NCBI GenBank assembly: GCA_963817535.1
Contig: CAWFOW010000011.1
Location: 243,473-307,472 of the forward strand
Length of the DNA stretch: 64,000 bases
Direction: 5' to 3'
DNA from: an uncultured Alphaproteobacteria bacterium
GTDB lineage: Bacteria; Pseudomonadota; Alphaproteobacteria; MPNO01; DASWLB01
The notes beneath the pieces are model-generated. The model was not told where the DNA came from. It saw only the letters and a list, made by a program, of their open reading frames with translations, and did not search any database. Within the stretch, counting starts at the first letter, position 1; the number at the start of each line of letters is the position of its first letter. This document shows, piece by piece, positions 4,585 through 38,811 of this stretch. The position numbers and the translations under genes were made by a program.

Positions 4585-6699
4585 TCAGCCTTCGAACCGG
4601 ATGCGCCAGGTGACGGTATCGCCCGCCACCGGCAGGACCAGCTTTTTCGTGGCAACGAGCCGGCCATAGCCGGGGGCGAGCTGCGACTCCTCGACCCGCC
4701 ATGCGCCTGCTTCGGCCGAAACGGTAAGCCGCGCCGTCCCGTGGGAGAGCATGACGGACGCGGCCGCCGCGCGTTCGACCTGCACGTCGGGATGCAAATG
4801 CAGCCCAATCGTCCTGGTTCCCGGCGCGGCGCAGGAGTTGGCGATCTCGATGCCGTCCGGCGCGATCCGGATCGTGCGCCGGCAGGGCGCGCCGTACCCG
4901 TCATGCGCGCCGACGAACAGCGACTCGCCGGCCTCGATCACGCGGGGCCGTGCTGTGTCCAGCAGATGGAACAGGCTTTCGGAGCCCGGCGCGAATTGCT
5001 CCCGCCCGGCGATCGCCAGCGTGTTGTGCATCGCCGCGCCGCGGAAGCGGCCCCGCGCCTCGGGCAGCGGCGTGTAGAGATAGCTGCCGGAATCGACGAA
5101 GAACGGCACGCCGTCGAGCGCCAGCTCGAGCGCGAGCTGGTCGTTGTGCAAATGCGATCCCGTGCCGCCGCCCGCCAGTGCGCCGCAGCGGACGGCCAGC
5201 CACATCCGGCCGGTCTCGTAGACGTAGAGCCCGAATTGCGGGAAGCGGCGCGGATTGACCTTCGGCGGTTCGCCGGGCAGGGGGCCGAACGGCGCGCCGC
5301 CGGAAAGCGCCCGCACGATCGCGCCGTCGAGGCCGTTCGGCTCGCCCTCGAACAGCGCCGCGATGGCGTCCTCGAGATGGCGGTGGTCCTGCGAGGTCTC
5401 GCCAAGCCGGAAAAAGCGTCCGCAGTCATTGTCGCCGATATCCGGGACCAGCCCGTCGGGCCGCGTGACTCCGCGGGTGAAGCGCGCGATGGCGGCGAAG
5501 CGCTCGGCCAGGGCTGGCGTGAAGATGTCGAGCGAGGTCGCGTACTTCGCCCAGCCGGGGGTTTCGGCGAGGCGCGGCTGCGACCGGGCGAGCGCCGCGG
5601 GCACGCGCGCGCGCAATCCCGCGAGGACGGCCGCGGCAAAGGCGACCGTCTCGCCGCTGAGGCGATGGTAGGCGACCGAGTCCTCGAAGTTGCCGCCATC
5701 GGGGGGGAACTGGCGCGGAACCTCGGCTGCCAGCGCCGCGCTGGCATAGGCGAGCCACGAGTCGGTCTCGTCGGATGGCGGCAGATACGCGGCGCAGAAG
5801 GCGAGCCCCGCGATGTCGCACAGGAAATGGTTGCTGCGCGCTTCGGGCGACCATTCGAGATTGCGGATCAGGAACCGGCCGTGCTCGTAGAGCGCGCGCG
5901 CCAGCACGCGCTCGAACGCGGCATCGAACGTGGCGCCCAGCGCGCGGAACAGGTCCCAGGCCAGCGCGAGGTTCGCCGCGCGGATGCCGACATCCATCGG
6001 GCAGGCCCACTGCACCCCGAAGCGCGGCGGGTTGGCCGCCAGGAAGTCGAGTACCTGATGGCGGAATTCGCTGGCGTGGACCTCGGCGTGGTCCTGGACC
6101 AGCGCCAGTGCCGGCAAATGCTGCAGCCGGCCGAGCTCCCACGGCACCTTGACGTCGACCCCGCGTATCTCGCCATAGACGATGTCGCGCCACCATGTGC
6201 GCGCGTCCCAGCGGAAGCCCGACTTGAAGTCGATCTGCCAGTCGATCGGCACGTATCCGGGCGCGACCAGCCGCCAGAGACGCTGCGCTTCGGCAAGGGC
6301 GGCCGACGGCAAAATCTCGGCGAGCCAACGCCCGTCGCCGTCGATGGCCGGAGCCGGGACGGGCGGGAACACGATACCCTCCAGCCCCGCGCACGCCATG
6401 CCATGTTTCACGTGCAACAAACCCGAGCCCAGCAGGTCGAACCGGTGTTCGAGGGTGAGGTCGGCATCGCGTGCCCGCGCCGCGGCACGGAAGTGCAGGG
6501 CCGCGCCGGGTAGTTCTGCGACATGCGGGACCAGGCGCAGCGCGTCCTCGGGCAGATCGAGCGCGTAGGTCGGCTGGCGGAGATCGGCCGCTCGCGCGCG
6601 TGCGACCGTGGTGCGGCGCCGCCACAGCGCGCGAGCGCGCCGCAACGTCTCCTGCGGCGGAAGCGACGCCGCGCGGCGCACGTAATGGATCAGCCGCAC
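4585..6699 (-). CDS. heparinase II/III-like family protein
   Basis: 704 aa. The C-terminal GSHLHNDQLALEL block resembles the conserved G-H-x-H-x-D motif of heparinase II/III-like proteins. Its size and its context next to AsnB and GT4 genes are typical of LPS/EPS loci. Confidence 0.65.
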   Translation of the reverse strand: MRLIHYVRRAASLPPQETLRRARALWRRRTTVARARAADLRQPTYALDLPEDALRLVPHVAELPGAALHFRAAARARDADLTLEHRFDLLGSGLLHVKHGMACAGLEGIVFPPVPAPAIDGDGRWLAEILPSAALAEAQRLWRLVAPGYVPIDWQIDFKSGFRWDARTWWRDIVYGEIRGVDVKVPWELGRLQHLPALALVQDHAEVHASEFRHQVLDFLAANPPRFGVQWACPMDVGIRAANLALAWDLFRALGATFDAAFERVLARALYEHGRFLIRNLEWSPEARSNHFLCDIAGLAFCAAYLPPSDETDSWLAYASAALAAEVPRQFPPDGGNFEDSVAYHRLSGETVAFAAAVLAGLRARVPAALARSQPRLAETPGWAKYATSLDIFTPALAERFAAIARFTRGVTRPDGLVPDIGDNDCGRFFRLGETSQDHRHLEDAIAALFEGEPNGLDGAIVRALSGGAPFGPLPGEPPKVNPRRFPQFGLYVYETGRMWLAVRCGALAGGGTGSHLHNDQLALELALDGVPFFVDSGSYLYTPLPEARGRFRGAAMHNTLAIAGREQFAPGSESLFHLLDTARPRVIEAGESLFVGAHDGYGAPCRRTIRIAPDGIEIANSCAAPGTRTIGLHLHPDVQVERAAAASVMLSHGTARLTVSAEAGAWRVEESQLAPGYGRLVATKKLVLPVAGDTVTWRIRFEG

Positions 6700-8225
6700 G
6701 GCACGCGCGCCTCCAGCGCGGCGAGGATCGTGGCCACGTGGTCGCGCCAGCCGTGCCGTTCCGCGTCCTTCCGGGCCGCGGCGCCGAGCCGGGCGCGCAA
6801 CGCGGCATCGCCGGCCAGGCGGTCGAGCGCGGCGGCGAGTGCGGAGGAATCGGCCGACGGCACCAGCAGCCCGTTCGCGCCGTCGCGGATCGTCTCGGCC
6901 ATTTGGCCGAGGTCGGAGGCGACCACGGCGCGGCCCATCGCCATGTACTCGACCAGCTTGGTGGGCGAGCCGAAAAACGGTGTGCTGTCGGGGTTCGGCA
7001 CTTGCGGCGAGACCAGCACGTCGCAGGCGGCGAGGTGCGCGGGCATGTCGGCGGGCGCGACGGCGCCCGTGAAGCGCGCGCGCTCGGCAAGGCCGGCTCC
7101 CGCGAGAGCCCGTTCCGCCGCCGCACGGGTCGCGCCGTCGCCGATCATCAGCAGGGCGACATCCGGCCGCTGCCGCGCGAGGATCGCGAAGGCCTCGGCC
7201 AGTATCTCCGCGCCGTGCCAGCGCCCGAACGAGCCGGAGAACCCGACGACTACGCCGTCGAGCGCGAGGCGCCGCCGCACTGCCGTGCCGTCGATCTCCG
7301 GCGCGAAGCGCGCGGTGTCGACAGCGTTGGGGGCGACCACGATCTTGCCGGGCTCGATCCCGCGCCCAGCCAGCTCGTCGCGCAGCGCCGCGCTCACCAC
7401 GGCGATCGCGTCGGCGGCCGCGAGGTTAGCGCGCTCGGCGCGGTCGGCGAGATCGGGACGGGCGAGCCCGCCGCCCCAGTGGCGCGCCATCCAGCCTTCG
7501 GCGCCGTTATATTCGAGCACCAGCGGCACGCCGCGCGCGCGGGCGAGGCGTGCGCCCGCGACGTCGAACGCCAGATTGCGGTGGTACACGAACGCGATCC
7601 GGCGGCCGGCGAGGGCGTCGTGCGCCGCGTCGAAGGCGTGGCGCGCGGCGGCGAGCGGGGCGAGGCTGGGGAAATCGCGGAAGCGCGCGGGGCGCACGAG
7701 CGGCACATGCGCCACCGCCGCGGGAAGGCCGGACAGCGGGGCCGGCGCGACGAGCAGCGGCGCACGCCCGAGTGCGGCCAGCCCTTCCAGCACGCCGCGC
7801 GCATGGCTCGCCGCGCCGCCCCAGTCCGGCATCTCCGCGAGCCCGGTGCGCAGCATGACCGGCACACCGTCCGGATCGCGGCGCGGCGGCGTCGCTGGCG
7901 GATGCAACAGCGTCTCGATGTCTTGCGCGTAGGCGCGGGAAAGCGCGGGGGCCGCCACCGCGTCGCGCAGCATCGCGCCGAATGCGCGCGCGATCGCCGT
8001 GCTTTGAACGGGCTGCGCCGCGCCGTCCCGGTCGCGCACGGCGCAGGGGCCGCGGCTGAGCAGGCGTAGCAGCATCAGGCTGACGAAGGGCCGCCGCCAT
8101 ATGGCGAGGTCCGCGACCATGAGCTCGGCGGCGGGATAGCGCCACGTGCCGAGGCCGCAGCGCCAGGCGCGGGCGAGCTGGCGCAAATCGTCGGCGACGA
8201 ACGGAGCGGTCCGGCGATCGGTCAT
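6690..8225 (-). CDS. glycosyltransferase family 4 with N-terminal extension
   Basis: 511 aa. The C-terminal EYMAMGRAVVASDLGQMAETIRDGANGLLV block is a GT4 E-x7-E-type motif. Confidence 0.8.
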   Translation of the reverse strand: MTDRRTAPFVADDLRQLARAWRCGLGTWRYPAAELMVADLAIWRRPFVSLMLLRLLSRGPCAVRDRDGAAQPVQSTAIARAFGAMLRDAVAAPALSRAYAQDIETLLHPPATPPRRDPDGVPVMLRTGLAEMPDWGGAASHARGVLEGLAALGRAPLLVAPAPLSGLPAAVAHVPLVRPARFRDFPSLAPLAAARHAFDAAHDALAGRRIAFVYHRNLAFDVAGARLARARGVPLVLEYNGAEGWMARHWGGGLARPDLADRAERANLAAADAIAVVSAALRDELAGRGIEPGKIVVAPNAVDTARFAPEIDGTAVRRRLALDGVVVGFSGSFGRWHGAEILAEAFAILARQRPDVALLMIGDGATRAAAERALAGAGLAERARFTGAVAPADMPAHLAACDVLVSPQVPNPDSTPFFGSPTKLVEYMAMGRAVVASDLGQMAETIRDGANGLLVPSADSSALAAALDRLAGDAALRARLGAAARKDAERHGWRDHVATILAALEARVPCG

Positions 8226-8267
8226 GGCGCGCCAATGTACGGCTTGGCGGCCGCGCCGGACACCGCC

Positions 8268-9449
8268 TCAGAGCAGCGGAGTAATGGGCGGAAGGCCCAG
8301 GAGTGCCCTTCCATAGACCTCCTGGTTCGTGCGCAGCGCGAGGAAGCCGTGCATGTTGATGGCGTGCAGGTCGCGGCTTGCGCGCTGCAGCGGATTGCGG
8401 TCGGCCAGCGTGCCGCCGCCCGCGGCGAGGAACAGGATCTCGACCGCCTCGAGGCAGCAGCGCACGGCCTGGGCGCAGTCCATCCGCGCGCGGGCGCGGC
8501 GCTCGATCGGCATTTCCTCGCCGGCTTCGGCGGTGCGCTCGATGTCGTCGGCGAGGCGGCGGAGCAGGAGCTCGGCCATGTCGATGCGAATCGCGGCGTC
8601 GGCCAGCTCGGCATGGGTGACGGGCCATTCCGACTGCACGTGGCCGGTATAGGCGAGCACGCGCCCGCCCTTCACATGGTCGAGGAAGGTGGCGAGCGCA
8701 CCCTTGGCAATGCCGAGCGCGGGCCCGGACAGCGCGATGTCGAGCACGGGGACCGCGGCGGCGCGGTAGAGCCACCCGTCGTGTAGCGCGAGGCCGGGCG
8801 CCTTGCCGGTGAAGGCCGTCGGCGTCGACAGGAACCGGTGCGCGGGCACGAACAGGTCCTTGCCGGCGACGCTGCAGCTTCCGGTGCCTTTGAGGCCCGA
8901 CACGTGCCAGTCGTCATTCACGGTGAGGTCCGCGGTCGGCACCAGGAATTCGCCCTCGTCGATTACCGCGCCGGAGGAGTCCTTCACCTGGCCGCCGAGG
9001 AACATCCACTGCGAATGCTGGCAGCCCGACCCGAACGGCCAGAAGCCGCCGAGGCGGTACCCGCCATCGGTGGCGGTCGCCGTGCCGCGCGGGGCGACAA
9101 CCGCGCAGGTGATGGCATCCGGATTGGCGCCGTAAAGCTCCGCCTGAGCCGACTCGGGGAACAGGCCGGACAGCCAAGTGTGGGCGTGGATCACTCCGGC
9201 CACCCAGGCCGACGAGCCGCAGCCCTGGGCCAAGGTCGAGACCACGTCGAGATGGGTGTGGATGTCGAGCTGGTGGCCGCCATAGCGCCGCGGCTGGAGG
9301 ATCTTGAGCAGCCCCGACTGGCGCAAATCGGCCACGGTCTCGTCGGGCAGGCGGCGCAACCGCTCGGCATCGAGCGCGCGCTCGCGCAGCACGGGCACCA
9401 GCGCCGCCGCACGCGCGTTCGCTTCCTCGCGGGTCAGGGCGCGGTCCAT
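8268..9449 (-). CDS. acyl-CoA dehydrogenase-fold flavoprotein (group D flavin monooxygenase-like)
   Basis: 393 aa, ACAD N-terminal and middle-domain-like sequence. The start lies 7 nt downstream of the stop of TRAP permease 9457..11424, so it is likely co-transcribed. Confidence 0.7.
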   Translation of the reverse strand: MDRALTREEANARAAALVPVLRERALDAERLRRLPDETVADLRQSGLLKILQPRRYGGHQLDIHTHLDVVSTLAQGCGSSAWVAGVIHAHTWLSGLFPESAQAELYGANPDAITCAVVAPRGTATATDGGYRLGGFWPFGSGCQHSQWMFLGGQVKDSSGAVIDEGEFLVPTADLTVNDDWHVSGLKGTGSCSVAGKDLFVPAHRFLSTPTAFTGKAPGLALHDGWLYRAAAVPVLDIALSGPALGIAKGALATFLDHVKGGRVLAYTGHVQSEWPVTHAELADAAIRIDMAELLLRRLADDIERTAEAGEEMPIERRARARMDCAQAVRCCLEAVEILFLAAGGGTLADRNPLQRASRDLHAINMHGFLALRTNQEVYGRALLGLPPITPLL

Positions 9450-17781: not shown

Positions 17782-17786
17782 GCAGG

Positions 17787-18260
17787 CTATTTGTAGCGGA
17801 CCGACAGGATCTCGTAGGACTTGGATCCCGCAGGCGTCGTGACCTCGACCGAATCGCCCACCCGCTTGCCGATCAGCGCGCGCGCCAGCGGCGCCGTAAT
17901 GGCCAGCTTGCCCGATTTGATGTCGGCCTCGTCCTCGCCGACGATCTGGTAGGTCGCCTCTTCGTCGGTGTCCTCGTCGGCGAGCTTCACCTTGGCCCCG
18001 AACTTCACGTCCTTGCCGGAAAGCTGTGAGGGGTCGATCACCTCGGCCCGGCGCAGCTTGTCCTCGAGCTCGCCCAGCCGGCCCTCGATGAAGCCCTGAC
18101 GTTCGCGCGCCGCATGGTACTCGGCGTTCTCGGAGAGGTCGCCATGACCGCGTGCGGCCGCGATGGCCTTGATGATCTGCGGCCGCTCGATCGTCTTAAG
18201 GCGCTTCAACTCGGCCTCCAGCCGGCTGAAGCCTTCCGATGTCATCGGTATCTTGTCCAT
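17787..18260 (-). CDS. greA: transcription elongation factor GreA
   Basis: [22 protein letters not shown]... is a clear GreA. The ATG is at 18260; the track start 18302 is over-extended. Confidence 0.9.
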
Positions 18261-18361
18261 TCCCCTGCGACCCAAAGAAAGCGAGGCGTCCTGCGGCGGC
18301 AACGTGCCGTCGCTACCCGACGTGGCTGGCCAGATGGTGCCGTCCGGTCTTGCGTACCACC

Positions 18362-21634
<3,273 letters not shown>

Positions 21635-29118: not shown

Positions 29119-31554
29119 ATGGTTAGGGTCGCCGTCTGGCTGGTCCTGGGGCTCGTTGTCTGTACGGTCACCGTGGTGGGCGGGGTCTTTGCGCTGTTCT
29201 ACGAGTACGGGCGCGGACTGCCGGACTACAAGCAGCTCGCCGACTACAGCCCGCCGATGGTCACCCGCGTCTATGCCGGCGACGGGCGGCTGCTCGCCGA
29301 GTATGCGCGGGAGAAGCGCGTGTTCGTGCCGGTCTCGGCGATCCCCAAGCGGGTGATCAAGGCGTTCATCGCCGCCGAGGACCGCAACTTCTACAGCCAT
29401 CCCGGCATCGACTTCATGGGGACGGCGCGCGCCGCCTTCACCAACCTCACCCGGCTCGGCAGCGACCGCCGGCCCGTCGGCGGTTCGACCATCACCCAGC
29501 AGGTGGCCAAGAACTTCCTGCTGACCAACGAGGTCTCGATCACCCGCAAGATCAAGGAGGCGATCCTCGCCTTCCGGATCGAGCGCACCTTCTCGAAGAA
29601 CCGCATCCTCGAGCTCTATTTGAACGAGATCTATCTCGGGCAGGGCTCGTACGGCGTCGCCGCCGCGGCGCTCAACTACTTCAACAAGGCGCTCGACGAC
29701 CTGACCATCGCCGAGGCGGCCTTCCTCGCCGGGCTGCCGAAGGCGCCCAACAATTACAGCCCGCAGCGCCATCCCGAGGCCGCCCGCGCGCGGCGCGACT
29801 ATGTGATCCACCGGATGGTCGAGGACGGCTACATCACCGGGGCCGAGGCCCAGCGCGCCCTGCTGACGCCGCTCGAGGTGCGCGCGCGCGACGATACCGA
29901 GCTGGTGACGGCCGACTTCTTCTCCGAGGACGTTCGGCGCGAGCTGGTGGCGCGCTACGGCAAATCCAAGCTCTATGCCGGCGGGCTCTCCGTCCGCACG
30001 ACGCTCGATCCCCGGCTGCAGCGCTACGCGCGGAAGGCGCTGCGCGACGGGCTGATCGACTATGACCGGCGCCATGGCTGGCGCGGGCCGCTGGCGCACA
30101 TGCGGCTCGATGCCAACTGGAAGGTCCGCCTGAACGAGATGGAGCGTCCGGCCGCACTCGGCGAGTGGCGCATTGCCCTCGTCACCGGCGTCGATCGCGA
30201 GGCGGCCTGGATCCGGCTTTCCGACGGCACCGAGGGGTTCATCACCATGGACAACCTCGAATGGGCGCGGAAAACGCTGCCGGACCAGCGCTTCGGGGTG
30301 AAGCCGCGCACGCCTTCCGACGTGCTGGACAAGGGCGACGTGATCGCCGTCGCGCCGGCACCGCCCGGCAAGGACGGCAAGGCCGCCGCGCCGGGCTCCT
30401 ATGCGCTGGAGCAGATTCCCGCGGTCGACGGCGCGATCGTGGCGCTCGATCCGCACACCGGGCGCGTGCTCGCCATGGTCGGCGGGTTCGATTATGCCCG
30501 CAGCCAGTTCAACCGCGCGACCCAGGCCTATCGCCAGCCCGGCTCGGCCTTCAAGCCGCTGGTCTATCTCACCGCGCTGGAGGACGGGTTCACGCCCAAC
30601 CGCATCGTTCTCGACGCGCCGTTCGTCATCGACCAGGGGCCCGGCCTGCCGAAATGGCGCCCCAGCAACTACGAGAACAAGTTCTTCGGGCCGAGCCCGA
30701 TGCGTGTCGGGCTGGAGGAGTCGCGCAACCTGATGACGGTGCGCATCGCCCAGGCGGTCGGCATGGATCGCATCGCCGCGACCGCGCACGAGTTCGGCGT
30801 GATCGACGACCTGCCGCGCGTGCTGTCGATGGCGCTGGGCGCGGGCGAGACGACGCTGCTGCGCCTGACCACCGCCTACGGCATGTTCGTCAATGGCGGC
30901 AAGAAGATCACGCCCACGATGATCGATCGCATTCAGGACCGCGAGGGCAAGACGATCTTCCGCCACGACAAGCGGCCCTGCGCGCAATGCACCAACGTCG
31001 CCTGGCACGGCCAGGATCCGCCGATGGTGCCCGACACGCGCGAGCAGGTGGCCGATCCGCAGTCGAGCTACCAGCTCGTCTCGATGCTGCAGGGCGTGGT
31101 GCAGCGCGGCACGGGCCGGCGCGTGGCGTCGATCGGCAAGCCGCTGGCCGGCAAGACCGGCACGACCAACGACAGCGAGGACACCTGGTTCATCGGCTTC
31201 ACGCCGGACCTAGTGGCCGGCGTGTTCGTGGGCTTCGACACGCCGCGCACGCTGGGCCGCCACGAGACCGGCTCGTCCGTCTCCTCGCCGATCTTCAAGG
31301 AGTTCATGGAGCACGCGCTGGACGGCAAGCCCGGCATCCCGTTCCGCATTCCGCCGGGCATCCGACTGGTGCGGGTGAACGAGAAGAACGGCGAGCTGGC
31401 GCGCGCGGGCGACCGCGACGTGATCCTCGAGGCGTTCAAGCCCGGCACCGAGCCGGGCTCGGAGTCAAGTCCGGCCCAGGTGCTCGACGGCTCCGGCGGC
31501 AGTGCACCCGGTCCGGCCGTGATGCCGGTCGGCGACGTCCGCGGGCTGTATTAG
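29119..31554 (+). CDS. mrcA: class A penicillin-binding protein 1A (transglycosylase/transpeptidase)
   Basis: GT51 motifs (EDRNFYSHPGID, GGSTITQQ) and transpeptidase domain. The ATG at 29119 has a GAGGGAAGGA RBS. Confidence 0.9.
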   Translation: MVRVAVWLVLGLVVCTVTVVGGVFALFYEYGRGLPDYKQLADYSPPMVTRVYAGDGRLLAEYAREKRVFVPVSAIPKRVIKAFIAAEDRNFYSHPGIDFMGTARAAFTNLTRLGSDRRPVGGSTITQQVAKNFLLTNEVSITRKIKEAILAFRIERTFSKNRILELYLNEIYLGQGSYGVAAAALNYFNKALDDLTIAEAAFLAGLPKAPNNYSPQRHPEAARARRDYVIHRMVEDGYITGAEAQRALLTPLEVRARDDTELVTADFFSEDVRRELVARYGKSKLYAGGLSVRTTLDPRLQRYARKALRDGLIDYDRRHGWRGPLAHMRLDANWKVRLNEMERPAALGEWRIALVTGVDREAAWIRLSDGTEGFITMDNLEWARKTLPDQRFGVKPRTPSDVLDKGDVIAVAPAPPGKDGKAAAPGSYALEQIPAVDGAIVALDPHTGRVLAMVGGFDYARSQFNRATQAYRQPGSAFKPLVYLTALEDGFTPNRIVLDAPFVIDQGPGLPKWRPSNYENKFFGPSPMRVGLEESRNLMTVRIAQAVGMDRIAATAHEFGVIDDLPRVLSMALGAGETTLLRLTTAYGMFVNGGKKITPTMIDRIQDREGKTIFRHDKRPCAQCTNVAWHGQDPPMVPDTREQVADPQSSYQLVSMLQGVVQRGTGRRVASIGKPLAGKTGTTNDSEDTWFIGFTPDLVAGVFVGFDTPRTLGRHETGSSVSSPIFKEFMEHALDGKPGIPFRIPPGIRLVRVNEKNGELARAGDRDVILEAFKPGTEPGSESSPAQVLDGSGGSAPGPAVMPVGDVRGLY

Positions 31555-31572
31555 CGATTGGCGAGAACAAAT

Positions 31573-31637
31573 GGGGGCGGGTCGGGCCCCCGCCCCCGTA
31601 CTGCAATCGAAGCGGGCCGGCGGATGGCCGGCCGCCC
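31573..31637. terminator. bidirectional GC-rich hairpins between convergent mrcA and ABC binding-protein gene
   Basis: gggggcggg-tcgggcc-cccgccccc and ggccggc-ggat-gccggcc stem-loops. No U-tract, as is common in high-GC genomes. Confidence 0.45.
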
Positions 31638-31648
31638 CCGGACCCCCG

Positions 31649-32674
31649 TCAGCTCTTCGGGCCGACCTTGGTCGGCACGTAATTGGCTTCCTTCAACGTC
31701 TTTTCCAGAAGGTCGCGCGCCACCCACTGCTCGGGATCGGGCAGCGGCTTGTCCTTGGGCCAGGCATGCGAACGGATCATCGTCTGGCGCCGTGACTCGA
31801 ACAGAGCGTGGAACTGGTCCTTCGGCAGCTCCGCCCCGAAGGCGTCGTGGAGCTGGTCCCACACGATCCCGGCGGTCGCGTCGTCCTTGAAGCCGAGATA
31901 TTTTTTCAGGATCGGCATCGAGCCTTCCTTGTTCGAGCGGAAGAACGTGACCGCCTGGGCGATCGATTTGATGAACGCCTTGACCGTGTCGGGATGCGAA
32001 TCGAAGTATTTCCGCGTCATCCAGAAGCATCCGCCGACGCGGGGCAGGTAGTCGCCCGTGCGCAGCAGCACGTGGTAATTGCCGGTCTTGAGCGCCTGCG
32101 CCGCATGCGGCACCGACAGCAGCGCCGCCTTGACGTCGCCGTTGATCAGCGCGGCGAGCTGGCCGGTTTCCGACTGGAACGAGATCACCTTGTATTCCTT
32201 GCCGGGGCGCATCTTGAAGAAGCGCGCGAGGACCGCCGCGCCCTCGTCGAAATTGGCGCCGCCTTCCTGGCCGTACCCGATCGTCAGCCCCTTGAGCTGC
32301 TCGGCCTTGGTGATGTCCTTCGTCGTCACGAAGGTCCATTGCGAGCGCAGCGACTCGTTGACGACATAGACCATCTTCGCGCCGCGCAGCGCGGCCTGGG
32401 CCCCGCCCGACGGGATCGGGATGGTGTCGACATTGCCGGCGAGCGCGGCAGTGATCAGCGGGCGGCCGCCCATCTCGACCCAGCTCGCGTCGATCCCGTT
32501 CTGCTTGTAGTAGCCCTTCGCCATCGCGACGTAGCTGGGGATGTGGAAGCCGTTGCCCCCGATCACCATGCCGATACGGATCTTGTGGTCGTCGGCCTGC
32601 GCCGTCCCGGCGGCCAGCGACAGGGCGAAGCCGGCCGCGACAATCGACGAAAGCACGAATTTCAGCGTACGCAT
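31649..32674 (-). CDS. ABC transporter substrate-binding protein, NitT/TauT (sulfonate/nitrate/taurine) family
   Basis: Signal peptide MRTLKFVLSSIVAAGFALSLAAGTAQA. The ATG at 32674 has a GGGAGGG RBS. SsuA/TauA-like fold. Confidence 0.8.
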   Translation of the reverse strand: MRTLKFVLSSIVAAGFALSLAAGTAQADDHKIRIGMVIGGNGFHIPSYVAMAKGYYKQNGIDASWVEMGGRPLITAALAGNVDTIPIPSGGAQAALRGAKMVYVVNESLRSQWTFVTTKDITKAEQLKGLTIGYGQEGGANFDEGAAVLARFFKMRPGKEYKVISFQSETGQLAALINGDVKAALLSVPHAAQALKTGNYHVLLRTGDYLPRVGGCFWMTRKYFDSHPDTVKAFIKSIAQAVTFFRSNKEGSMPILKKYLGFKDDATAGIVWDQLHDAFGAELPKDQFHALFESRRQTMIRSHAWPKDKPLPDPEQWVARDLLEKTLKEANYVPTKVGPKS

Positions 32675-32729
32675 GTTGCCCTCCCTAGATAATGCCCAAT
32701 AGAGCGATGCACGTGGACAGTCGGACGCA

Positions 32730-33587
32730 TCAGTCCGCGGCAAGCTGTTGTGGACGCCAGCGGCTCAGGCGGTTCTCGAGGATTTTGACCAGTGCGGTCA
32801 TGACGAGCGACAGCGCCGCGAACACGATCACCCCGGCGAACACGACGTCGACCTGGTAGTGCCCGGCCGCGCGCACCATGATCACGCCGAGCCCCTCGGT
32901 CGAGCCGAAGAACTCCGATACCACGACGCCCAGGATCGCGCGTCCGATGGCGAGGCGCAGCCCGGCGACGATGTAGGGCATCGCGTTCGGCACGACGACC
33001 ATCTTCGCGATCTGCCATTCGTTGGCGCCGAATGCGCGCACCACGTTGACCAGAACCCGGTCGGTGTTGCGCACGCCTTCGTAGGTGTTGATCAGCATCG
33101 GCAGCAGCGCGCCGAGGAACACGACGGCGACCTTCGACCACAGCCCGAGCCCGAGCCACAGCAGGAGCAGCGGCAGGAAGACGAGCCGCGGCGTCGCGTT
33201 GAGCGCGGTGACGAACGGGTCGAGCATCGCGTTGAGGATCGCCGACCGGCCGATCAGCACGCCGAGCGGCAGCCCGACGGCGATCGCGAGCCCGAGCCCG
33301 ATGCCGAACCCCGAGGCGCTGACCCCGAGCGGCCCCCAGATGCTGCCGCTCGCGAACATCTCCCACAACGTGCCGGCCACCTGGCTCGGGGTGGCGAAGA
33401 ACAGCTTGGTGCCGGGCGACAGCTCCACCACGCGCGGCAGGATCTCCCACGCAAACAGGCAGACGACGATCGTGGCGGCGCCGAGAGCGGTGGACTCCCA
33501 GCGCTGCCACGCGGTCTGGGCGGGCGGGCTGTCCGTCTCGGACGGGACGTCGGCCGCTCCGGCCGGCAGGGTTCGGGTGTCGTCCAT
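32730..33587 (-). CDS. ABC transporter permease (NitT/TauT family)
   Basis: 285 aa with 6 TM helices and EAA-like loop. Confidence 0.8.
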   Translation of the reverse strand: MDDTRTLPAGAADVPSETDSPPAQTAWQRWESTALGAATIVVCLFAWEILPRVVELSPGTKLFFATPSQVAGTLWEMFASGSIWGPLGVSASGFGIGLGLAIAVGLPLGVLIGRSAILNAMLDPFVTALNATPRLVFLPLLLLWLGLGLWSKVAVVFLGALLPMLINTYEGVRNTDRVLVNVVRAFGANEWQIAKMVVVPNAMPYIVAGLRLAIGRAILGVVVSEFFGSTEGLGVIMVRAAGHYQVDVVFAGVIVFAALSLVMTALVKILENRLSRWRPQQLAAD

Positions 33588-33588
33588 C

Positions 33589-34425
33589 CTAGTTTCCCGC
33601 TCGCCACGGGAAGGCGGCGCGCTCGGCCCAGCGGATGCCCTCGGTCAGCACGACGGCGAGGACCATGATGATCACGATCGCCCCGAACATGCGGTCCATC
33701 GCGAACAGGTTGCCGAAGCGCTGGATGGCGTAGCCGATGCCTTCGGAGGCGGCGAAGAACTCGCCGATCAATATGCCGATCAGGGCGCGGCCGACCGCGA
33801 TGCGCGCGCCGGCGACGATGTAGGGCAGCACGCTCGGCACGATCACTTTCCAGTAGAGGTCGCGCTCCTTGCCGCCCATCGACCGGACGACGTTGATCAG
33901 CAGCGGATCCACCGCGTGCACGCCGGCATAGGCGTTGAACATGAACGGGAACACCGCGAGCACGAAGATGATCAGCATCTTCGACAGAACGCCCACGCCG
34001 AAGAACACGACGAACAGCGGTGCCAGGGCGACCAGCGGGCTGGCATAGAGAAGCGTCATCAACGGGTCGAGCGCGTAGCCCACGCGCGTGCGCCAGCCCA
34101 TCACGATGCCAAGCGAAATACCGACGATCGAGGCGCATACGAAGCCGTAGAGGAACGGCACGCCCGACACGGCCAGGTCGTTGCCCAGATCGCCCTCCTG
34201 GGCCATGTCGACCAGCGCCCAGAAGATCAGGCTCGGCTTGGTGATGAACAGCGGGTCGAACGGCACCACGAGGAACGCCGCTTGCCACGCGGCGAGGAAC
34301 AGCACCACCGCAAGCGCACCCAGCAACGGCTTGCGATTGCGTTGCAGGAAGGAGTCCCGCGGCACAACTTCGCCGGCGTCATCCTCGGCGGCGGGCGCGG
34401 CGGTGCGGCTGACGGTGGCGTTCAT
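33589..34425 (-). CDS. ABC transporter permease (NitT/TauT family), second copy
   Basis: 278 aa, paralogous permease. Confidence 0.8.
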   Translation of the reverse strand: MNATVSRTAAPAAEDDAGEVVPRDSFLQRNRKPLLGALAVVLFLAAWQAAFLVVPFDPLFITKPSLIFWALVDMAQEGDLGNDLAVSGVPFLYGFVCASIVGISLGIVMGWRTRVGYALDPLMTLLYASPLVALAPLFVVFFGVGVLSKMLIIFVLAVFPFMFNAYAGVHAVDPLLINVVRSMGGKERDLYWKVIVPSVLPYIVAGARIAVGRALIGILIGEFFAASEGIGYAIQRFGNLFAMDRMFGAIVIIMVLAVVLTEGIRWAERAAFPWRAGN

Positions 34426-34429
34426 GGGC

Positions 34430-35200
34430 TCACACCGTGATTTCGTCCTTGAGCGCGTTCCAGATGTTCAGCTTCATCTCGTTGAACTCGGGCGTGACCC
34501 GCATCTCGTAGTCGCGCGGGCGCGGCAGATCGATGTCGAAAATCGTCTTGGCGCGGCCCGGCCGCTTGGTCATCACCATCACCCGGTCGGACAGATAGAT
34601 CGCCTCGTCGATCTGGTGCGTGACGAAAAGAACGGTCTTCTGTGCCGCCTGCCAGATGCGCAGCAGCTCGACCTGCATCAGATCGCGCGTCTGCGCGTCG
34701 AGCGCGGCGAACGGCTCGTCCATCAGCAGCACGTCGGGATCGGTGGCGAGCGCGCGGGCGAGACCGACGCGCTGCTTCATCCCGCCCGAAAGCTCGTGGG
34801 GATAATGGCCCTCGAATCCGGTGAGCCCGACCATTTCGATGAAGCGGGCGGACACGTCGCGCCGCGCCGCGGTCGGCACGCCCTTGAGCTGCAGCCCCAG
34901 CTCGACGTTCGACTGGACGGTGCGCCACGGCAGCAGCCCGAACTCCTGGAACACCATGGCGCGGTCGGTGCCGGGGCCGGTGATGGCGCGACCGTGCATC
35001 ATGAGATCGCCGGAGTCGGGGCGGATCAGCCCGAGGAGCACGTTGAGGAAGGTCGACTTGCCGCAGCCCGACGGGCCGACGATCGACAGGAATTCGGACT
35101 CGCGCACGTCGATGTCGAAATTCTGCAGCGCACGAACCGCGGCGCGGTTGGGCGGCCGGAAGGTCAAGTTGACGTTGCGTCCCTGTATGAATCCGTCCAT
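34430..35200 (-). CDS. ABC transporter ATP-binding protein (NitT/TauT family)
   Basis: Walker A GPSGCGKST, signature LSGGMKQR, Walker B LLMDEPF. Confidence 0.9.
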   Translation of the reverse strand: MDGFIQGRNVNLTFRPPNRAAVRALQNFDIDVRESEFLSIVGPSGCGKSTFLNVLLGLIRPDSGDLMMHGRAITGPGTDRAMVFQEFGLLPWRTVQSNVELGLQLKGVPTAARRDVSARFIEMVGLTGFEGHYPHELSGGMKQRVGLARALATDPDVLLMDEPFAALDAQTRDLMQVELLRIWQAAQKTVLFVTHQIDEAIYLSDRVMVMTKRPGRAKTIFDIDLPRPRDYEMRVTPEFNEMKLNIWNALKDEITV

Positions 35201-35487
35201 GTGCGCGATCCGCTCCCTGAACGTTGATTGTTATCGTTCTCGAATCCGCACCTCAGCGTAGCCGATAAATTGAATGACGCAAACCGCGATTCAGGGGGAA
35301 CGCATTAAGCTTCCGTTCGTGCCGAGGAGCGCCTTGGCTGCGCCGGATTCATCAGAGTTTGCGAATGTATTGTGAAAACCGGAAGCGGCATTGCCCCTCA
35401 CCCTGCCCCTCTCCCGAGGGGGGGTTATATACTTTACGTACCGTGTCCTTTCCCCCATATTCAGAGGGACAGGCAGGGAACGCCACG

Positions 35488-36435
35488 ATGATCGATCTTC
35501 AAAACCCGATTTACACGAACGAAGACAAGGCGCGCGAGCATCTTGAGGCCCTTCAGTGGCCCGATGGTCCGTTCTGCCCGCGCTGTGGTGTTATGGGCGA
35601 CCACATCACCAAGCTGGCAGGAAAATCCACTCGCCCCGGTGTTTACAAGTGCAAGGATTGCCGCAAGCCCTTCACCGTGACAGTGGGCACGTTGTTCGAA
35701 CGCTCACACATTCCGTTGACCAAGTGGCTTCTGGCGACCGATCTTCTGTGCGCGTCCAAGAAGGGCATGAGCGCCCATCAGATGCACCGCATGTTGGGCG
35801 TGACGTACAAGACGGCGTGGTTCATGGCGCATCGCATCCGTGAGGCAATGCGCGAGATTTACCCGGAACCGTTGGGCGGCACTGGCAAGTGGGTTGAGGC
35901 GGACGAAACCGCCATCGGCGGCAGGGAACGTAATAAGCATCTCAGCAAGCGCAACCCGAAGAACATCGGCATGTCAGGCGGCAAGGAAATCGCCTTCTCG
36001 CTGGTCGAGCGCGGCGGCAAGGTCCGCTCGCATCATGTGCCCAACGTGAACGCCAAGACCCTGCGCCCCATCCTGGTTGCCCAGGTTGACCGCAAATCCA
36101 CGCTAATGACCGACGAAGCGGGCCAGTACCGCGTTGTCGGCCCCGAGTTCGCGGACCATCAGAAGGTCAATCACGGCATCGAGGAATATGTGCGAGGCGA
36201 GGCCTACACGAACACCATCGAGGGCTGTTTCTCGATCCTCAAGCGCGGGATCAACGGAACGTACCACCATGTCTCGCAACAGCACCTAAAGCGTTACCTC
36301 GGCGAATTTGATTTTCGATACAACGAGCGCGCCAAGCTTGGCGTGACCGATAGCGAGCGTACAATCAAAGCCCTCAAGGGCATTCAGGGTAAGCGCCTCA
36401 CTTATCGGCGGACTAACGAAGCCCCGAACGCCTAG
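35488..36435 (+). CDS. IS1595 family transposase
   Basis: N-terminal zinc ribbon CPRCG...CKDCRKPF followed by a DDE region. Start ATG verified at 35488. A GCGCAtttcATGCGC hairpin lies just after the stop. Confidence 0.8.
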   Translation: MIDLQNPIYTNEDKAREHLEALQWPDGPFCPRCGVMGDHITKLAGKSTRPGVYKCKDCRKPFTVTVGTLFERSHIPLTKWLLATDLLCASKKGMSAHQMHRMLGVTYKTAWFMAHRIREAMREIYPEPLGGTGKWVEADETAIGGRERNKHLSKRNPKNIGMSGGKEIAFSLVERGGKVRSHHVPNVNAKTLRPILVAQVDRKSTLMTDEAGQYRVVGPEFADHQKVNHGIEEYVRGEAYTNTIEGCFSILKRGINGTYHHVSQQHLKRYLGEFDFRYNERAKLGVTDSERTIKALKGIQGKRLTYRRTNEAPNA

Positions 36436-36477
36436 GCAGAAGGCCGCGCATTTCATGCGCTGGCGCAAGAGGCAGAA

Positions 36478-36735
36478 ATGAGCGATCCAGAGGTTTGGGC
36501 GAAATATGACGCGCTCGGCGAAGATGGAGTGCGTCTGCGCATAGCCCAAAAGGCGTACAATGGACACAACTTACAACTTGCTCAAGAATGGCTTCGGCGA
36601 CGTGAGGACAAACGATCTTCGCGATCAGACAGGCGAAAGGATACGAGGGATAATATAGCCGCTATCGCGGCAATCGTTGCCGCCGTGGCCGCGACGATTG
36701 GCGCTATCGCTTCGATGGTCATGCTTTTTTTCTAG
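36478..36735 (+). CDS. small tail-anchored membrane protein (passenger gene 1)
   Basis: 85 aa: soluble N-terminus, Arg/Lys/Asp-rich linker (RRREDKRSSRSDRRKDTRDN), single C-terminal TM helix (IAAIAAIVAAVAATIGAIASMVMLFF). AAGAGG RBS. Confidence 0.4.
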   Translation: MSDPEVWAKYDALGEDGVRLRIAQKAYNGHNLQLAQEWLRRREDKRSSRSDRRKDTRDNIAAIAAIVAAVAATIGAIASMVMLFF

Positions 36736-36854
36736 TGGCCTTTCCCGCTTTCTTAAAAGAATGCGGCTTCGGTGGTGTTTTCAGCATCCGCTTTAGCACC
36801 GCGTCACGTTTAGCCGGATTAGAATCCGGCCCCTGATCTTGGGGAGGCTTCGAT

Positions 36855-37472
36855 ATGCCTGATTTTGAGGCTCTTGAGCCCATTATGCGATCCTATGCCC
36901 TGGTTGGTTGTTTTTTACGCGGTTGGGCATTGCTTGAAGGGAATATAAAACAAGCCATCGGAAAGTCTCTGGGGCTGGGGACGGTCCAGTTGGCCATCGT
37001 TGCATCTAATATGCAATTTAGGGATAAGATCAATACATTGCGCACGGCCGTTGATATTTCCCGAATCCAACCGGATGAAAGAAAAAAGCATTTCAAAGCC
37101 GTATTACAGGATATAGCCGATTACTCCCATAACCGAAACATGATGGCGCATGACGTATTCGGGCCATCCCCAGATGGCGGCGTTGATTTTCTCGTCATTA
37201 AGGCGCGCGGGAGCCTTCAAGTTCCCGATACCGTCTGGCGCGTACAAGACTTCATCGAAGCATACCGAAAAATTGCTGATTGGACGGCCGAAGTAGACAG
37301 TCTGGCCGATGAGTTAGACACAGCGGCCCTAGTTAACGCCTTGATGCAACAAATGAGCCAGCCAACCACTCCCGAACCCGGCGGGTTAGGTCTTCTAGGT
37401 CTCCTGTTCCACCCGCCTCAAGACGCTCCCGATTCCAGCCATCATCCAGTCACTCCAGAAACAGAGTCTTGA
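36855..37472 (+). CDS. HEPN-like domain protein with Rx4H motif (passenger gene 2)
   Basis: 205 aa. YSHNRNMMAHDVF contains R-x4-H; the region is predicted helical. GGGAGG RBS 8 nt upstream of the ATG at 36855. Low-GC coding sequence. Confidence 0.4.
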   Translation: MPDFEALEPIMRSYALVGCFLRGWALLEGNIKQAIGKSLGLGTVQLAIVASNMQFRDKINTLRTAVDISRIQPDERKKHFKAVLQDIADYSHNRNMMAHDVFGPSPDGGVDFLVIKARGSLQVPDTVWRVQDFIEAYRKIADWTAEVDSLADELDTAALVNALMQQMSQPTTPEPGGLGLLGLLFHPPQDAPDSSHHPVTPETES

Positions 37473-37656
37473 ACGCCTCCATATCTCGCCCGAGGGCCGG
37501 GGCGGCCTGCCCCGGATTAGATAGGGAGCGATTATGGTACGCCAAGTGTATAATCCCCTCCTTGGGAGAGGGACAGGTGAGGGGGCAGACCTCGAAAGTT
37601 TCACAAGCTCTCAGGACGAACGGCGATCGGGCCAATGCGATCGCCCCGAGCCGCGA

Positions 37657-38811
37657 TTACCGCACCTTGGGCAGCCAGTTCGCCAGCCGGTCGATCGCGG
37701 CTTCGATGTCGGCGGTGGCTCCGGCGAAGGAAATGCGCAGATAGGCCCGGCCGCGCCCCTGGTCGAAATCGATGCCAGGCGTCGTTGCGATGCCGGTCTC
37801 GGCCAGCATGCGGGCGCAGAACGCCTCGGAGTCGTTGGTCAGCGCTGCGACGTCGGCATAGAGGTAGAAGGCGCCGTCGGCCGGCGCCATGCGGTCCATC
37901 CCGGCGCGCGGCAGGCCCTCGAGCAGCAGCGCGCGGTTCGCGGCGTAGCGCGCGACGTTCGCCTCGAGCTCCGTGGTGCAGTCGAACGCCGCCTCGGCCG
38001 CGATCTGGGCCAGGGTCGGCGGCGAGATGTAGATGTTCTGGGCCAGGCACTCGACCGACCGGGCGAGGTCCGGCGGGCACACCATCCAGCCGATCCGCCA
38101 GCCGGTCATCGAGAAATATTTCGAGAACGAGTTGACCACCAGCGCGTCGGGGTCGTTCGCGAGCGCCGTGGGCGCGGGGCGGCCGAACGTGATCCCGTGA
38201 TAGATCTCGTCCGAGACGAGCCGCACGCCGTTCGCCTTGCACCATGCGATGATGCCGGCGAACTCGCGGTCCTCGATCATCGTGCCGGCCGGGTTCGAGG
38301 GGCTGGCGACGATCAGCCCGTCGAGCTTCCCGGCCTTCTCAAGGAGCTCGACCGTCGGCTGGAAGCGTTCCGCCGGGCCGGCGGGCAGTCCCACCGGTTC
38401 GATTCCCAGGGCGAGCAGGATGTTGCGATAGCCGGGATAGGACGGGTCGGCGAGCGCCACCCGGTCGCCCGCGTCGAACGCCGCGAGGAAGGCGAGAACG
38501 AAGCCCCCCGATGAACCGGTTGTGACGATGATGCGGGCGGGATCGAGGCTGATGCCGTAAGCGTGCCGGTAATGGGTTGCGATGCGGTGCCGGAGGCTGG
38601 CACGACCGAGCGCTTCGGTGTAGCCGAGCGGCTCCGACTCGAGGGCGCGGCGCGCGGCGGCGACCACGCCCTGCGGCGTGCCCGAGCCCGGCTCGCCCAT
38701 CTCGAGATGCAGGATATGCTCGCCCGCCGCCTGGCGTGCATTGGCGGCGCGCATGACGTCCATCACGATGAAGGGCGGGATGCGGCCCCGCCGCGCGACC
38801 TTGAGCGTCAT
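37657..38811 (-). CDS. pyridoxal-phosphate-dependent aminotransferase (class I/II)
   Basis: MTLKVARRGRIPPFIVMDVMRAANARQAAGEHILHLEMGEPG...SFSKYFSMTGWRIGW (PLP-Lys motif). The ATG at 38811 lies 2 nt after the ggt stop. The track's 636-aa ORF is an Arg-rich over-extension. Confidence 0.85.
   Translation of the reverse strand: MTLKVARRGRIPPFIVMDVMRAANARQAAGEHILHLEMGEPGSGTPQGVVAAARRALESEPLGYTEALGRASLRHRIATHYRHAYGISLDPARIIVTTGSSGGFVLAFLAAFDAGDRVALADPSYPGYRNILLALGIEPVGLPAGPAERFQPTVELLEKAGKLDGLIVASPSNPAGTMIEDREFAGIIAWCKANGVRLVSDEIYHGITFGRPAPTALANDPDALVVNSFSKYFSMTGWRIGWMVCPPDLARSVECLAQNIYISPPTLAQIAAEAAFDCTTELEANVARYAANRALLLEGLPRAGMDRMAPADGAFYLYADVAALTNDSEAFCARMLAETGIATTPGIDFDQGRGRAYLRISFAGATADIEAAIDRLANWLPKVR

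Follow-up and report, generated by a model that had tools for sequence, protein, structure and literature searches.

Defence genes are carried as cargo by Tn7-like elements and integrons. Toxin-antitoxin (TA) modules are found in Tn3-family transposons (PMC7157771), and among the much smaller insertion sequences (ISs) the category of the transporter IS (tIS) was, according to later papers that refer to the original definition, established on the IS1595 family (Siguier, Gagnevin & Chandler 2009, Res Microbiol 160:232; cited in PMC3129680, PMC11891212). Short terminal inverted repeats (IRs) are described for this family, and 8 bp is the reported length of its target-site duplications (TSDs) (PMC8101967). 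Other ISs are known to insert into repetitive extragenic palindromic (REP) sequences, among them IS1397 and ISKpn1 (IS3), IS621, ISPpu9/10 and ISPa11 (IS110) and ISRm22 (IS4) (Tobes & Pareja 2006, PMC1525189). Such targeting is documented for IS3, IS110, IS4, IS256 and IS5, and the only IS1595 members tabled, IS1016 and IS1016C2, have low association ratios (PMC1525189). Here, we analyzed a window of 64,000 nucleotides (64 kb) from an uncultured Alphaproteobacteria bacterium (assembly GCA_963817535.1, contig CAWFOW010000011.1), in which positions 35420-37558 (2,139 bp) are an IS1595-family tIS. Since the tIS category was defined on this family, the element belongs to a known category. The locus as a whole is probably best explained by a tIS that sits in the loop of a hairpin, holds exchangeable cargo and has a recombinant right part.

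The transposase (Table 1) matched the Pfam domains DDE_Tnp_IS1595 (PF12762; E 9e-39, profile positions 5-153 of 153) and Zn_ribbon_IS1595 (PF12760; E 1.6e-11, residues 11-60) as well as the NCBIfam model transpos_IS1595 (NF033547; E 5e-57, 193 bits with a cut-off of 75), in agreement with the zinc-ribbon and DDE organisation that an initial annotation of the window had assigned to 35488..36435. An N-terminal zinc ribbon is present in all IS1595 groups except IS1016. The protein aligns over residues 1-315 with relatives at 58-80% identity, and more than 6,000 transposase clusters were found at E<1e-100.

When one genome per species was scanned, 80 loci with relatives of the transposase (58-77% identity) were obtained, and a position weight matrix (PWM) derived from the clear cases placed both ends in 61 elements, the one in the window included. 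All 61 carry GGGAATTATATACTTGAC... on the left side and the complement of it on the right side, their ends reading GGGAATTATATAC.../...GTATATAATTCCC, and 53 of them have a perfect 8/8 direct repeat, the TSD, directly outside the GGGAATTAT ends. Because the TSD abuts these ends in so many relatives, anything outside them is target DNA. In the window, the terminal IRs comprise 23 bp (GGGGGTTATATAC.../...GTGTATAATCCCC); in short form, the left repeat (IRL) reads GGGGGTTATAT and the right one (IRR), as reverse complement, GGGGATTATAC, the IS end also being written GGGGnTTATATAC. The next-best site on the right side scored 0.8 bits, compared to 26.8 for IRR. The register of the relatives' TSDs therefore puts the ends at 35420 and 37558, not at 35370 and 37606, where they had been called initially. 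As initially noted, the window copy itself shows no clean TSD: the two 8-mers at the expected positions, TCCCGAGG and TCCTTGGG, agree at 5/8, so the 8-bp duplication typical of IS1595 is a property of the clade and not of this copy.

Three open reading frames (ORFs) lie between the transposase stop (36435) and IRR (37536), and this layout, bounded by TSDs, recurs in the relatives. The element is thus, as had been proposed, a transporter IS with passenger genes between transposase and right end and not a compact IS of 1 kb. Element lengths among the relatives range from 1.8 to 4.1 kb, which indicates that cargo is the rule in the clade. Concerning the subgroup, the end consensus of the ISNwi1 group in ISfinder is ggnnatTAT, and the ends of the window element and its clade (GGnnnTTAT) fit this form. 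Public annotations of the relatives name only an “IS1595 family transposase” or a “DDE transposase”, and the plasmid annotations give no ISNwi1 name.

Some relatives deviate in their termini. A subclade of four elements (L070, L072, L076 and L080, from Mesorhizobium, Falsiroseomonas, Hoeflea and Chelativorans, respectively) has CCTAATTATATAC ends in place of GGGAATTAT. In L070, L076 and L080, and not in L072, the left flank resembles another right IS end (L076 ...GTCAAGTATATAATTAGG) followed by the 8-bp TSD, which suggests tandem copies or a targeting of the elements' own ends. The closest relative in GTDB (L002, 77% amino acid identity) has a good right end and a hairpin-type flank (GTATATAAGCCCC, then CCCAGAGGGAGAGGG); no recognisable left end was found within 320 nt upstream of its transposase gene, and it may be a truncated or rearranged copy.

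The flanks of the relatives point to a distinct type of target. In many of them, chiefly those with the nearest transposases, the IS is preceded by CCCTCCCCC-loop and followed by loop-GGGGGAGGG, with the loop repeated directly and not inverted; in L004, for example, the junctions read CCCTCCCCC[ATCGAGGG]-IS-[ATCGAGGG]GGAGGG, the arms being inverted and the loop forming the direct repeat. Taking out the IS together with one TSD copy gives back a perfect hairpin. Altogether, a stem of at least 7 bp is centred on the insertion site in 31 of the 61 elements (C/G-rich in 28), whereas 5.3% of 5,998 positions drawn at random from these loci have such a stem. In the flanks of the related loci, uninterrupted hairpins of the kind are present at 5.7 per 100 kb, so they form a REP-like repeat family; more distant relatives are inserted in ordinary, often AT-rich, 8-mers. 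Based on these frequencies, the clade appears to prefer the loop of C-rich REP-like hairpins of the form CCCTC[C/T]CC-loop-GG[A/G]GAGGG, a preference that is statistical for the relatives and extended from them to the window copy.

In the window, the corresponding palindrome is CCCTCTCC-loop-GGAGAGGG, also written TGCCCCTCACCCTGCCCCTCTCC-loop-GGAGAGGGACAGGTGAGGGGGCA, with TGCCCCTCACC... arms that are unusually long compared to those of the relatives. The left flank consists of TGCCCCTCACCCTGCCCCTC followed by TCCCGAGG, the right flank of TCCTTGGG followed by AGAGGGACAGGTGAGGGGGCA. If the IS is taken out together with one 8-mer, the rebuilt site is predicted to form a hairpin (-37.6 kcal/mol, stem of 12 bp or more).

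The history of the copy can be traced by comparison with L168, a genome 97-99% identical to that of the window and from the same sample as L167. The IS is present there as well, in the identical position between the aminotransferase gene and the ABC operon, the setting that was initially described and in which both flanking genes were confirmed. Homology between the two copies stops at 36468, 33 nt past the transposase stop, and resumes at 37503, so that the cargo slot is precisely delimited by conserved backbone; in L168 it holds 1,140 bp in place of the 1,034 bp of the window. Judged from the alignment, the identity profile (Table 1) is most simply read as the footprint of a homologous-recombination tract, with one crossover in the transposase gene and one in the hairpin arm. 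Such a tract, from another related tIS in a similar hairpin, would have brought in the 3' half of the transposase gene, the cargo, IRR and the right 8-mer, and the missing TSD would then be due to this replacement of the right part. Hybrid flanks of a like kind are found in L021, which has hairpin arms on both sides and different loops.

The window copy is apparently old, single-copy and vertically inherited: the exact transposase protein occurs on one contig only and has its next neighbour at 80% identity, most relatives have more perfect IRs, and the insertion is common to the related strain. Its transposase ORF is intact, and the feature is an ordinary IS copy, probably in decay. Exact-protein look-ups of the transposase, the ABC ATPase and the aminotransferase returned no contigs.

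Two further observations concern L168. Its transposase was called as a 206-aa fragment (5092-5712) and its ABC permease genes (7237-8477) are likewise broken up; errors in the long-read assembly may have caused frameshifts here, in which case these would not be real pseudogenes. The ABC permease genes of the window (32934-34174) show 91-95% identity to L168 over about 1.2 kb amid surroundings of about 99%, apparently a second recombination tract unrelated to the IS.

Several points weigh against a tIS in a hairpin loop with a recombined right part. The motif CCCTCTCCC/GGGAGAGGG occurs at no other place in the 64-kb window, and the idea that the palindrome is an abundant local repeat is not supported in the window. 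The comparison of related strains that had been proposed for the locus recovered no empty site, and the boundaries were taken from the 61 relatives: L167, L169 and L170, which do not have the IS, do not have the hairpin or the gene adjacency either, and 80 metagenome loci with aminotransferase relatives (at most 79% amino acid identity) showed no shared synteny and no ABC ATPase. We therefore infer the insertion into a pre-existing hairpin at this locus from the relatives. Neither the window copy nor its L168 orthologue has a matching TSD, and the L168 flanks are inverted through the loop. Also, the assignment to ISNwi1 is a tentative one that relies on the end consensus, and no MNT gene, the typical partner of a HEPN toxin, is present beside the HEPN-like cargo gene described below.

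The element could also be the hybrid left by an IS-mediated chromosomal rearrangement, in which two copies inserted in separate hairpins at different loci recombined and so joined the aminotransferase and ABC-operon blocks; we regard this as a possible but rather unlikely course of events. The missing TSD would then be due to the rearrangement and not to a local tract of gene conversion. Both sides of the IS are synteny breakpoints compared to the nearest IS-free genomes, since homology with L167 ends at 35267 and that with L169 and L170 at 37664. Upstream of the ABC operon, L167 has the genes SDR-PrpD-GreA-CPSase, and in L169 and L170 the aminotransferase gene is followed by a GST gene; the CPSase-GreA block is placed at 17786-20425 in the window. 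The L168 flanks are related as after an inversion, the right 8-mer CCCTCGGG being the reverse complement of CCCGAGGG (35413-35420, one base to the right of the left TSD register). However, nucleotide identity to the genomes compared is no higher than 80-86%, so that their differences in synteny need not involve the IS. Moreover, a rearrangement alone leaves the identity gradient in the transposase gene and the different cargo of L168 unexplained. As both IS sides are synteny breakpoints, it is an alternative that is compatible with the hairpin insertion and cassette exchange and does not exclude them.

As to the CPSase-GreA block, L167 (82-86% nucleotide identity) has it upstream of the ABC operon at a distance of about 2.3 kb, and the window has it about 9 kb away on the other side of the operon, in the same relative orientation, which amounts to a block transposition relative to L167 (window 17786-20425 compared to 29478-35267).

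The cargo differs from its surroundings in composition, as noted initially. Its GC content is 0.529 (0.506 in the 205-aa ORF), compared to 0.586 in the transposase gene and 0.67-0.72 in the flanks, and the GC content at third codon positions (GC3) agrees, with 0.50-0.54 in the two plus-strand cargo ORFs, 0.76 in the transposase gene and 0.90 in host genes. This supports a foreign origin. The description as foreign cargo thus holds for composition, yet the gene set is typical of the clade, with the HEPN-like gene in 27 of 60 relatives and a small basic ORF in 14 of 60, and the cargo behaves as an exchangeable cassette. The two plus-strand ORFs first reported (36478-36735 and 36855-37472) are present, but a third, on the minus strand (36719-36883), had been missed. 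No relative was found that has the two plus-strand ORFs at the locus without transposase and IRs.

The largest cargo gene encodes a protein of 205 aa with no significant match in Pfam, NCBIfam, PADLOC or PHROGs. Its family comprises 815 cluster representatives at E<=1e-3, of which 198 reach E<=1e-30, and an iterated profile recovered a homologue in the 27 related elements mentioned above, always on the transposase strand and usually as the last gene, which makes it the most frequent single cargo type in the clade. An exact look-up of the protein returned only one 2-kb contig (L001), identical to the window, and the family had no match in viral contigs. R94, N95, A98, H99 and E28 are invariant in 54 sequences. 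In the AlphaFold (AF2) model (pLDDT 89), the protein is an up-down helical bundle with helices at 9-39, 43-68, 74-99 and 130-168; the RNxxAH motif lies at the C-terminal end of helix 74-99 and is followed by a three-strand insert (101-128) and the long last helix. By the published definition, HEPN domains have Rx4-6H where helix 3 ends, the R being followed by a polar residue, and a conserved acidic residue upstream (Anantharaman et al. 2013, PMC3710099), and the predicted structure and the invariant residues agree with this. In profile and structure searches, the family matches the Pfam HEPN families only weakly (E 0.06-0.13 at best), a Foldseek search of the PDB and a sequence-profile search of the PDB returned nothing, and a Foldseek search of BFVD was uninformative. 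With moderate confidence, the model and the conserved residues nevertheless indicate a HEPN-like protein. In L168, the slot encodes a 232-aa remote homologue (hhalign probability 82.7%, E 9.6e-6, 19% identity), in which RNRIAH aligns with the motif. The protein is most likely a metal-independent RNase, acting as an abortive-infection or defence effector or as an addiction toxin.

The C-terminal tail (residues ~170-205) has low model confidence, yet it is conserved in the family (GLGLL...P..S...PET..TPP), which suggests a short linear motif or an interaction peptide. Other frequent cargo groups were considered as remote HEPN-like relatives and rejected (hhalign probabilities of at most 28%).

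Upstream of the HEPN-like gene and divergent from it, the cargo encodes a small basic protein of 54 aa. It belongs to a family of 15 members among the related elements (14 of 60 relatives), with the motif RRDxVxRRMxxTPPQP, a basic tail and synonymous variation, and it is kept upstream of the HEPN-like gene in L085, L086 and L168. Within this ORF lies a 66-nt island (36761-36826) that is 86% identical to L168 amid otherwise unrelated cargo. The small basic ORF also occurs in elements without the HEPN-like gene, often directly downstream of the transposase gene. No Pfam or PADLOC match was found for the protein, and none of the three cargo ORFs of the window matched PADLOC at E<=1. The exact 54-aa ORF is missing from a collection of 15 billion proteins that does contain the overlapping 205-aa and 85-aa ORFs, which indicates that it was passed over in gene prediction. 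A role as regulator or antidote of the HEPN-like protein is possible for the small basic protein.

The 85-aa ORF had no family match in Pfam, NCBIfam, PADLOC or PHROGs and no homologue in related elements; it is a lineage-specific cargo gene with a predicted membrane anchor (maximum hydropathy of 2.52 at residue 59), and L168 has an unrelated ORF of 86 aa in its place. A conserved plus-strand partner upstream of the HEPN-like gene was considered and rejected, as the small ORFs there are unrelated between elements. Three small ORFs upstream of the HEPN-like gene (L013 1413-1691, L072 4192-4422 and L076 6232-6510) are mutually similar, two falling into BLAST cluster 11; they start M..(F/I)(L/H/V)ITYDL... 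and by eye recall Cas2/VapD-like ferredoxin-fold proteins.

Relatives that do not have the HEPN-like family carry other genes in the same slot. These include AbiU/AIPR (E 3e-111), two complete PD-Lambda-5 systems (A and B), four GmrSD/NsnA proteins in four elements, PD-T4-10, DNA methylases and restriction domains (restriction-modification), PIN domains, AAA_15 and DUF3800, as well as curated HEPN families, i.e. MAE_28990-like (HEPN_MAE_28990; 9.6e-14) and RiboL-PSP (HEPN_RiboL-PSP; 7e-10). Matches to PADLOC models comprise AbiU, PD-Lambda-5, NsnA and PD-T4-10. The slot is dominated by defence or toxin genes, and this is the main contextual argument that the HEPN-like gene of the window would belong to an abortive-infection, defence or addiction module and not be a transposition factor.

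Conversely, the 205-aa and small basic proteins could be accessory or regulatory factors of transposition, which we consider improbable. The small basic ORF of elements without the HEPN-like gene, often next to the transposase gene, would fit such a role, and so would the retention of its core (86%) through the cargo swap and the high frequency of the HEPN-like gene. However, the HEPN-like gene is missing from 33 of 60 relatives that still have perfect TSDs and is therefore dispensable for transposition, and bona fide defence systems occupy its slot in other members. Versions of 19% identity beside a transposase of 97% identity are, in addition, typical of conflict genes and unusual for a cofactor.

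The symmetry of the two ends bears on a further reading. The initial annotation had described ends of about 80 bp that are mutual reverse complements. This symmetry is real beyond chance (alignment score 58 compared to 16.9 +/- 2.5, maximum 27, in 300 shuffles), but the best local alignment (35394-35442 with 37536-37584, 49/50 nt, two indels) shows that strong similarity extends over about 50 nt; farther out, only TTGTGAAA (35370-35377 / 37599-37606) matches. The long IR is a composite, in which the inner 23 nt (35420-35442 / 37536-37558) are the IS termini and the outer part is a flanking palindrome. That the imperfect repeats from 35370 to 37606 are true termini recognised by the transposase is still less probable than an accessory role of the cargo. 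The symmetry does reach TTGTGAAA/TTTCACAA, the L168 ends are inverted straight through the CCCGAGG “loop”, and IS-free genomes have no hairpin at the locus. On the other hand, the TSD abuts GGGAATTAT in 53 of 61 relatives, and the outer sequence is not conserved save for generic CCCTCCCC/GGGGAGGG arms with directly repeated loops. In the window, no TSD can be read outside 35370/37606 or 35392/37587, and the spacers between TTGTGAAA and the arm differ in sequence and in length (14 and 11 nt). From the relatives' TSD register and hairpin-arm flanks, the outer half of the IR is thus best read as target palindrome and not terminus. The possibility raised initially, that the repeats are a common genomic repeat unrelated to IS ends, holds in so far as the outer symmetry is a genomic palindrome outside the termini, but this palindrome is the preferred target of the clade. 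Finally, the two downstream ORFs might belong to the resident chromosome and only happen to be enclosed by an IS and a solo or chance repeat. This reading has nothing in its favour except the absence of a TSD and is highly improbable, as the order transposase, cargo, subterminal motif and IRR is bounded by perfect TSDs in dozens of relatives, a family-type right IS end is likewise near the homologues in L082, L085 and L086 (in L082 with the 3' end of an IS1595 transposase gene upstream), GC3 is 0.50 compared to 0.90 in host genes, and IS-free genomes have these ORFs at neither locus.

Mechanistically, a tIS inserted in a hairpin loop would work as follows. The zinc-ribbon and DDE transposase, as in its family, would act on terminal IRs of ~23 bp and probably also on a right subterminal motif, and would make target duplications of 8 bp. 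Integration into a C-rich hairpin loop would leave the two arms flanking the IS, where they mimic a long IR, and the slot between the transposase stop and the subterminal motif would take up exchangeable cargo. The subterminal motif GACAGGCCGGCGC lies 49-55 nt from the right end in 33 of the 61 elements and could be a transposase site or a terminator or boundary. It is commoner with the HEPN-like gene (21/28) than without it (12/33). At the other border of the slot, a hairpin (GCGCATTTCATGCGC, 36446-36460) follows right after the transposase stop. A search for known RNAs gave only a sub-threshold match to isrK (19.5 bits compared to a gathering score of 50), and promoter and terminator scans of the locus were at background level. 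Of the flanking genes (Table 1), the ABC ATPase has a homologue of at least 90% identity that carries the JGI name NitT/TauT family.

Table 1. Features of the IS1595-family element and its surroundings, and identity to the L168 orthologue, in positions of the window
Feature	Position	Strand	Description
ABC ATPase, flanking gene	34430-35200	-	
Left outer symmetric flank, outside the IS	35370..35411	.	TTGTGAAA, spacer and left arm TGCCCCTCACCCTGCCCCTC of the C-rich palindrome
Expected left TSD copy	35412..35419	.	TCCCGAGG; register from 53 relatives with 8/8 TSD
IRL	35420..35442	+	GGGGGTTATATACTTTACGTACC; PWM 23.8 bits; 19/23 identical to the reverse complement of IRR
IS1595-family transposase, intact ORF	35488..36435	+	315 aa; N-terminal zinc ribbon and DDE domain
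Small hairpin GCGCAT-TTC-ATGCGC	36446..36460	.	Last conserved backbone before the cargo; read from the sequence
Cargo slot	36469..37502	.	1,034 bp, GC ~0.53; replaced by unrelated 1,140 bp in L168 save for a 66-nt island
85-aa ORF	36478..36735	+	Soluble N-terminus, basic linker, C-terminal hydrophobic helix
54-aa small basic protein	36719..36883	-	...KRDAVLKRMLKTPPKPH, then K/R tail; divergent from the 205-aa gene, with a 29-nt overlap at the start of that gene
HEPN-like protein, 205 aa	36855..37472	+	Invariant R94, N95, A98, H99 (Rx4H) and E28
Right subterminal motif	37497..37513	.	CCGGGGCGGCCTGCCCC; family consensus on bottom strand GACAGGCCGGCGC; backbone homology resumes here
IRR	37536..37558	-	Plus strand GGTACGCCAAGTGTATAATCCCC, reverse complement GGGGATTATACACTTGGCGTACC; PWM 26.8 bits
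Expected right TSD copy	37559..37566	.	TCCTTGGG; 5/8 match to 35412-35419
Right outer symmetric flank, outside the IS	37567..37606	.	Right arm AGAGGGACAGGTGAGGGGGCA, spacer and TTTCACAA; pairs with the left flank
Class I/II aminotransferase, flanking gene	37657-38811	-	
Identity to L168, chromosomal flanks			Mostly 99-100%; ~96% in non-coding 35175-35423
Identity to L168, 5' transposase gene	35424-35673		99.6%
Identity to L168	35674-35923		95.6%
Identity to L168, 3' transposase gene	35924-36423		86-90%
Identity to L168, cargo	36469-37502		Unrelated except for a 66-nt island at 86%
Identity to L168, IRR and right 8-mer			~80%
Identity to L168, right hairpin arm	37567 onward		100% over 60+ nt, then near-identical

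A wider and more tentative idea, to which we give somewhat less than even chances, is that this alphaproteobacterial tIS clade is a dedicated shuttle for anti-phage and toxin cassettes. It would home into hairpins, its commonest cargo would be a new HEPN-RNase family (at least 815 clusters) with a small basic partner, and cassettes would be reshuffled by recombination between backbones, with the hairpin arms as extra homology. If this were true, single-gene defence systems could be mined with ease from the clade as a new source, and it would be the first clear case of target specificity in IS1595. With its hairpin preference, IS1595 would join the families of ISs known to insert into REP-like sequences. 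For annotation, the halves of a palindrome around an inserted IS may wrongly be taken for very long IRs, and GGGAATTAT ends plus 8 bp provide a rule for delimiting an abundant clade. The unannotated HEPN-like family is a reasonable candidate for an abortive-infection or toxin system, and the pair formed by the window and L168 would be a natural example of cassette replacement within an IS. These clade observations leave the basic picture of the window feature unchanged. Hairpin targeting, cargo, subterminal motif and exchange are put forward here on computational grounds; in the literature searched, we found no report of hairpin targeting by IS1595, nor of defence cargo, the right subterminal motif or cassette exchange in this clade.

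Comparing the element to known IS1595 tIS, it shares a single transposase with Zn-ribbon and DDE_Tnp_IS1595 domains, short IRs, 8-bp TSDs in the family, passengers between the transposase gene and the right IR, and a size of ~2-4 kb. It differs in hairpin targeting, defence-type cargo and a subterminal motif absent from the literature searched, and in that the window copy has no TSD and appears recombinant. With the REP-targeting ISs it has in common the insertion into short GC-rich extragenic palindromes, whose two halves then flank the IS. Unlike in those cases, the proposed target is the alphaproteobacterial CCCTC[C/T]CC...GG[A/G]GAGG, the 8-bp duplication spans the loop, and about half of the clade insertions are in hairpins, distant members using AT-rich 8-mers.

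By sequence and predicted structure, the HEPN-like protein resembles the HEPN-domain RNase toxins and abortive-infection proteins (HepT/MNT, RnlA/LsoA, AbiU2/AbiV and MAE_28990-like) in having Rx4H at the end of helix 3, a polar residue and an upstream acidic residue (PMC3710099), an up-down bundle of alpha-helices into which an insert is placed ahead of the last one, and a place on a mobile element beside defence-type genes. In contrast to these toxins, it matches no curated HEPN profile significantly and has no MNT or other known antitoxin, its candidate partner being the divergent 54-aa basic protein; peculiar to it are the insert of three strands (residues 101-128) and the C-terminal tail, which is of low complexity yet conserved. 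As with the TA modules of Tn3-family transposons and the defence cargo of larger elements, a conflict module would occupy a fixed site in a transposable element and vary between related elements. Here, by contrast, the vehicle is a minimal IS, which has one DDE transposase next to a slot of ~1-3 kb; no resolvase, integrase or attC-like site was found, and exchange appears to proceed via homologous recombination between backbones.

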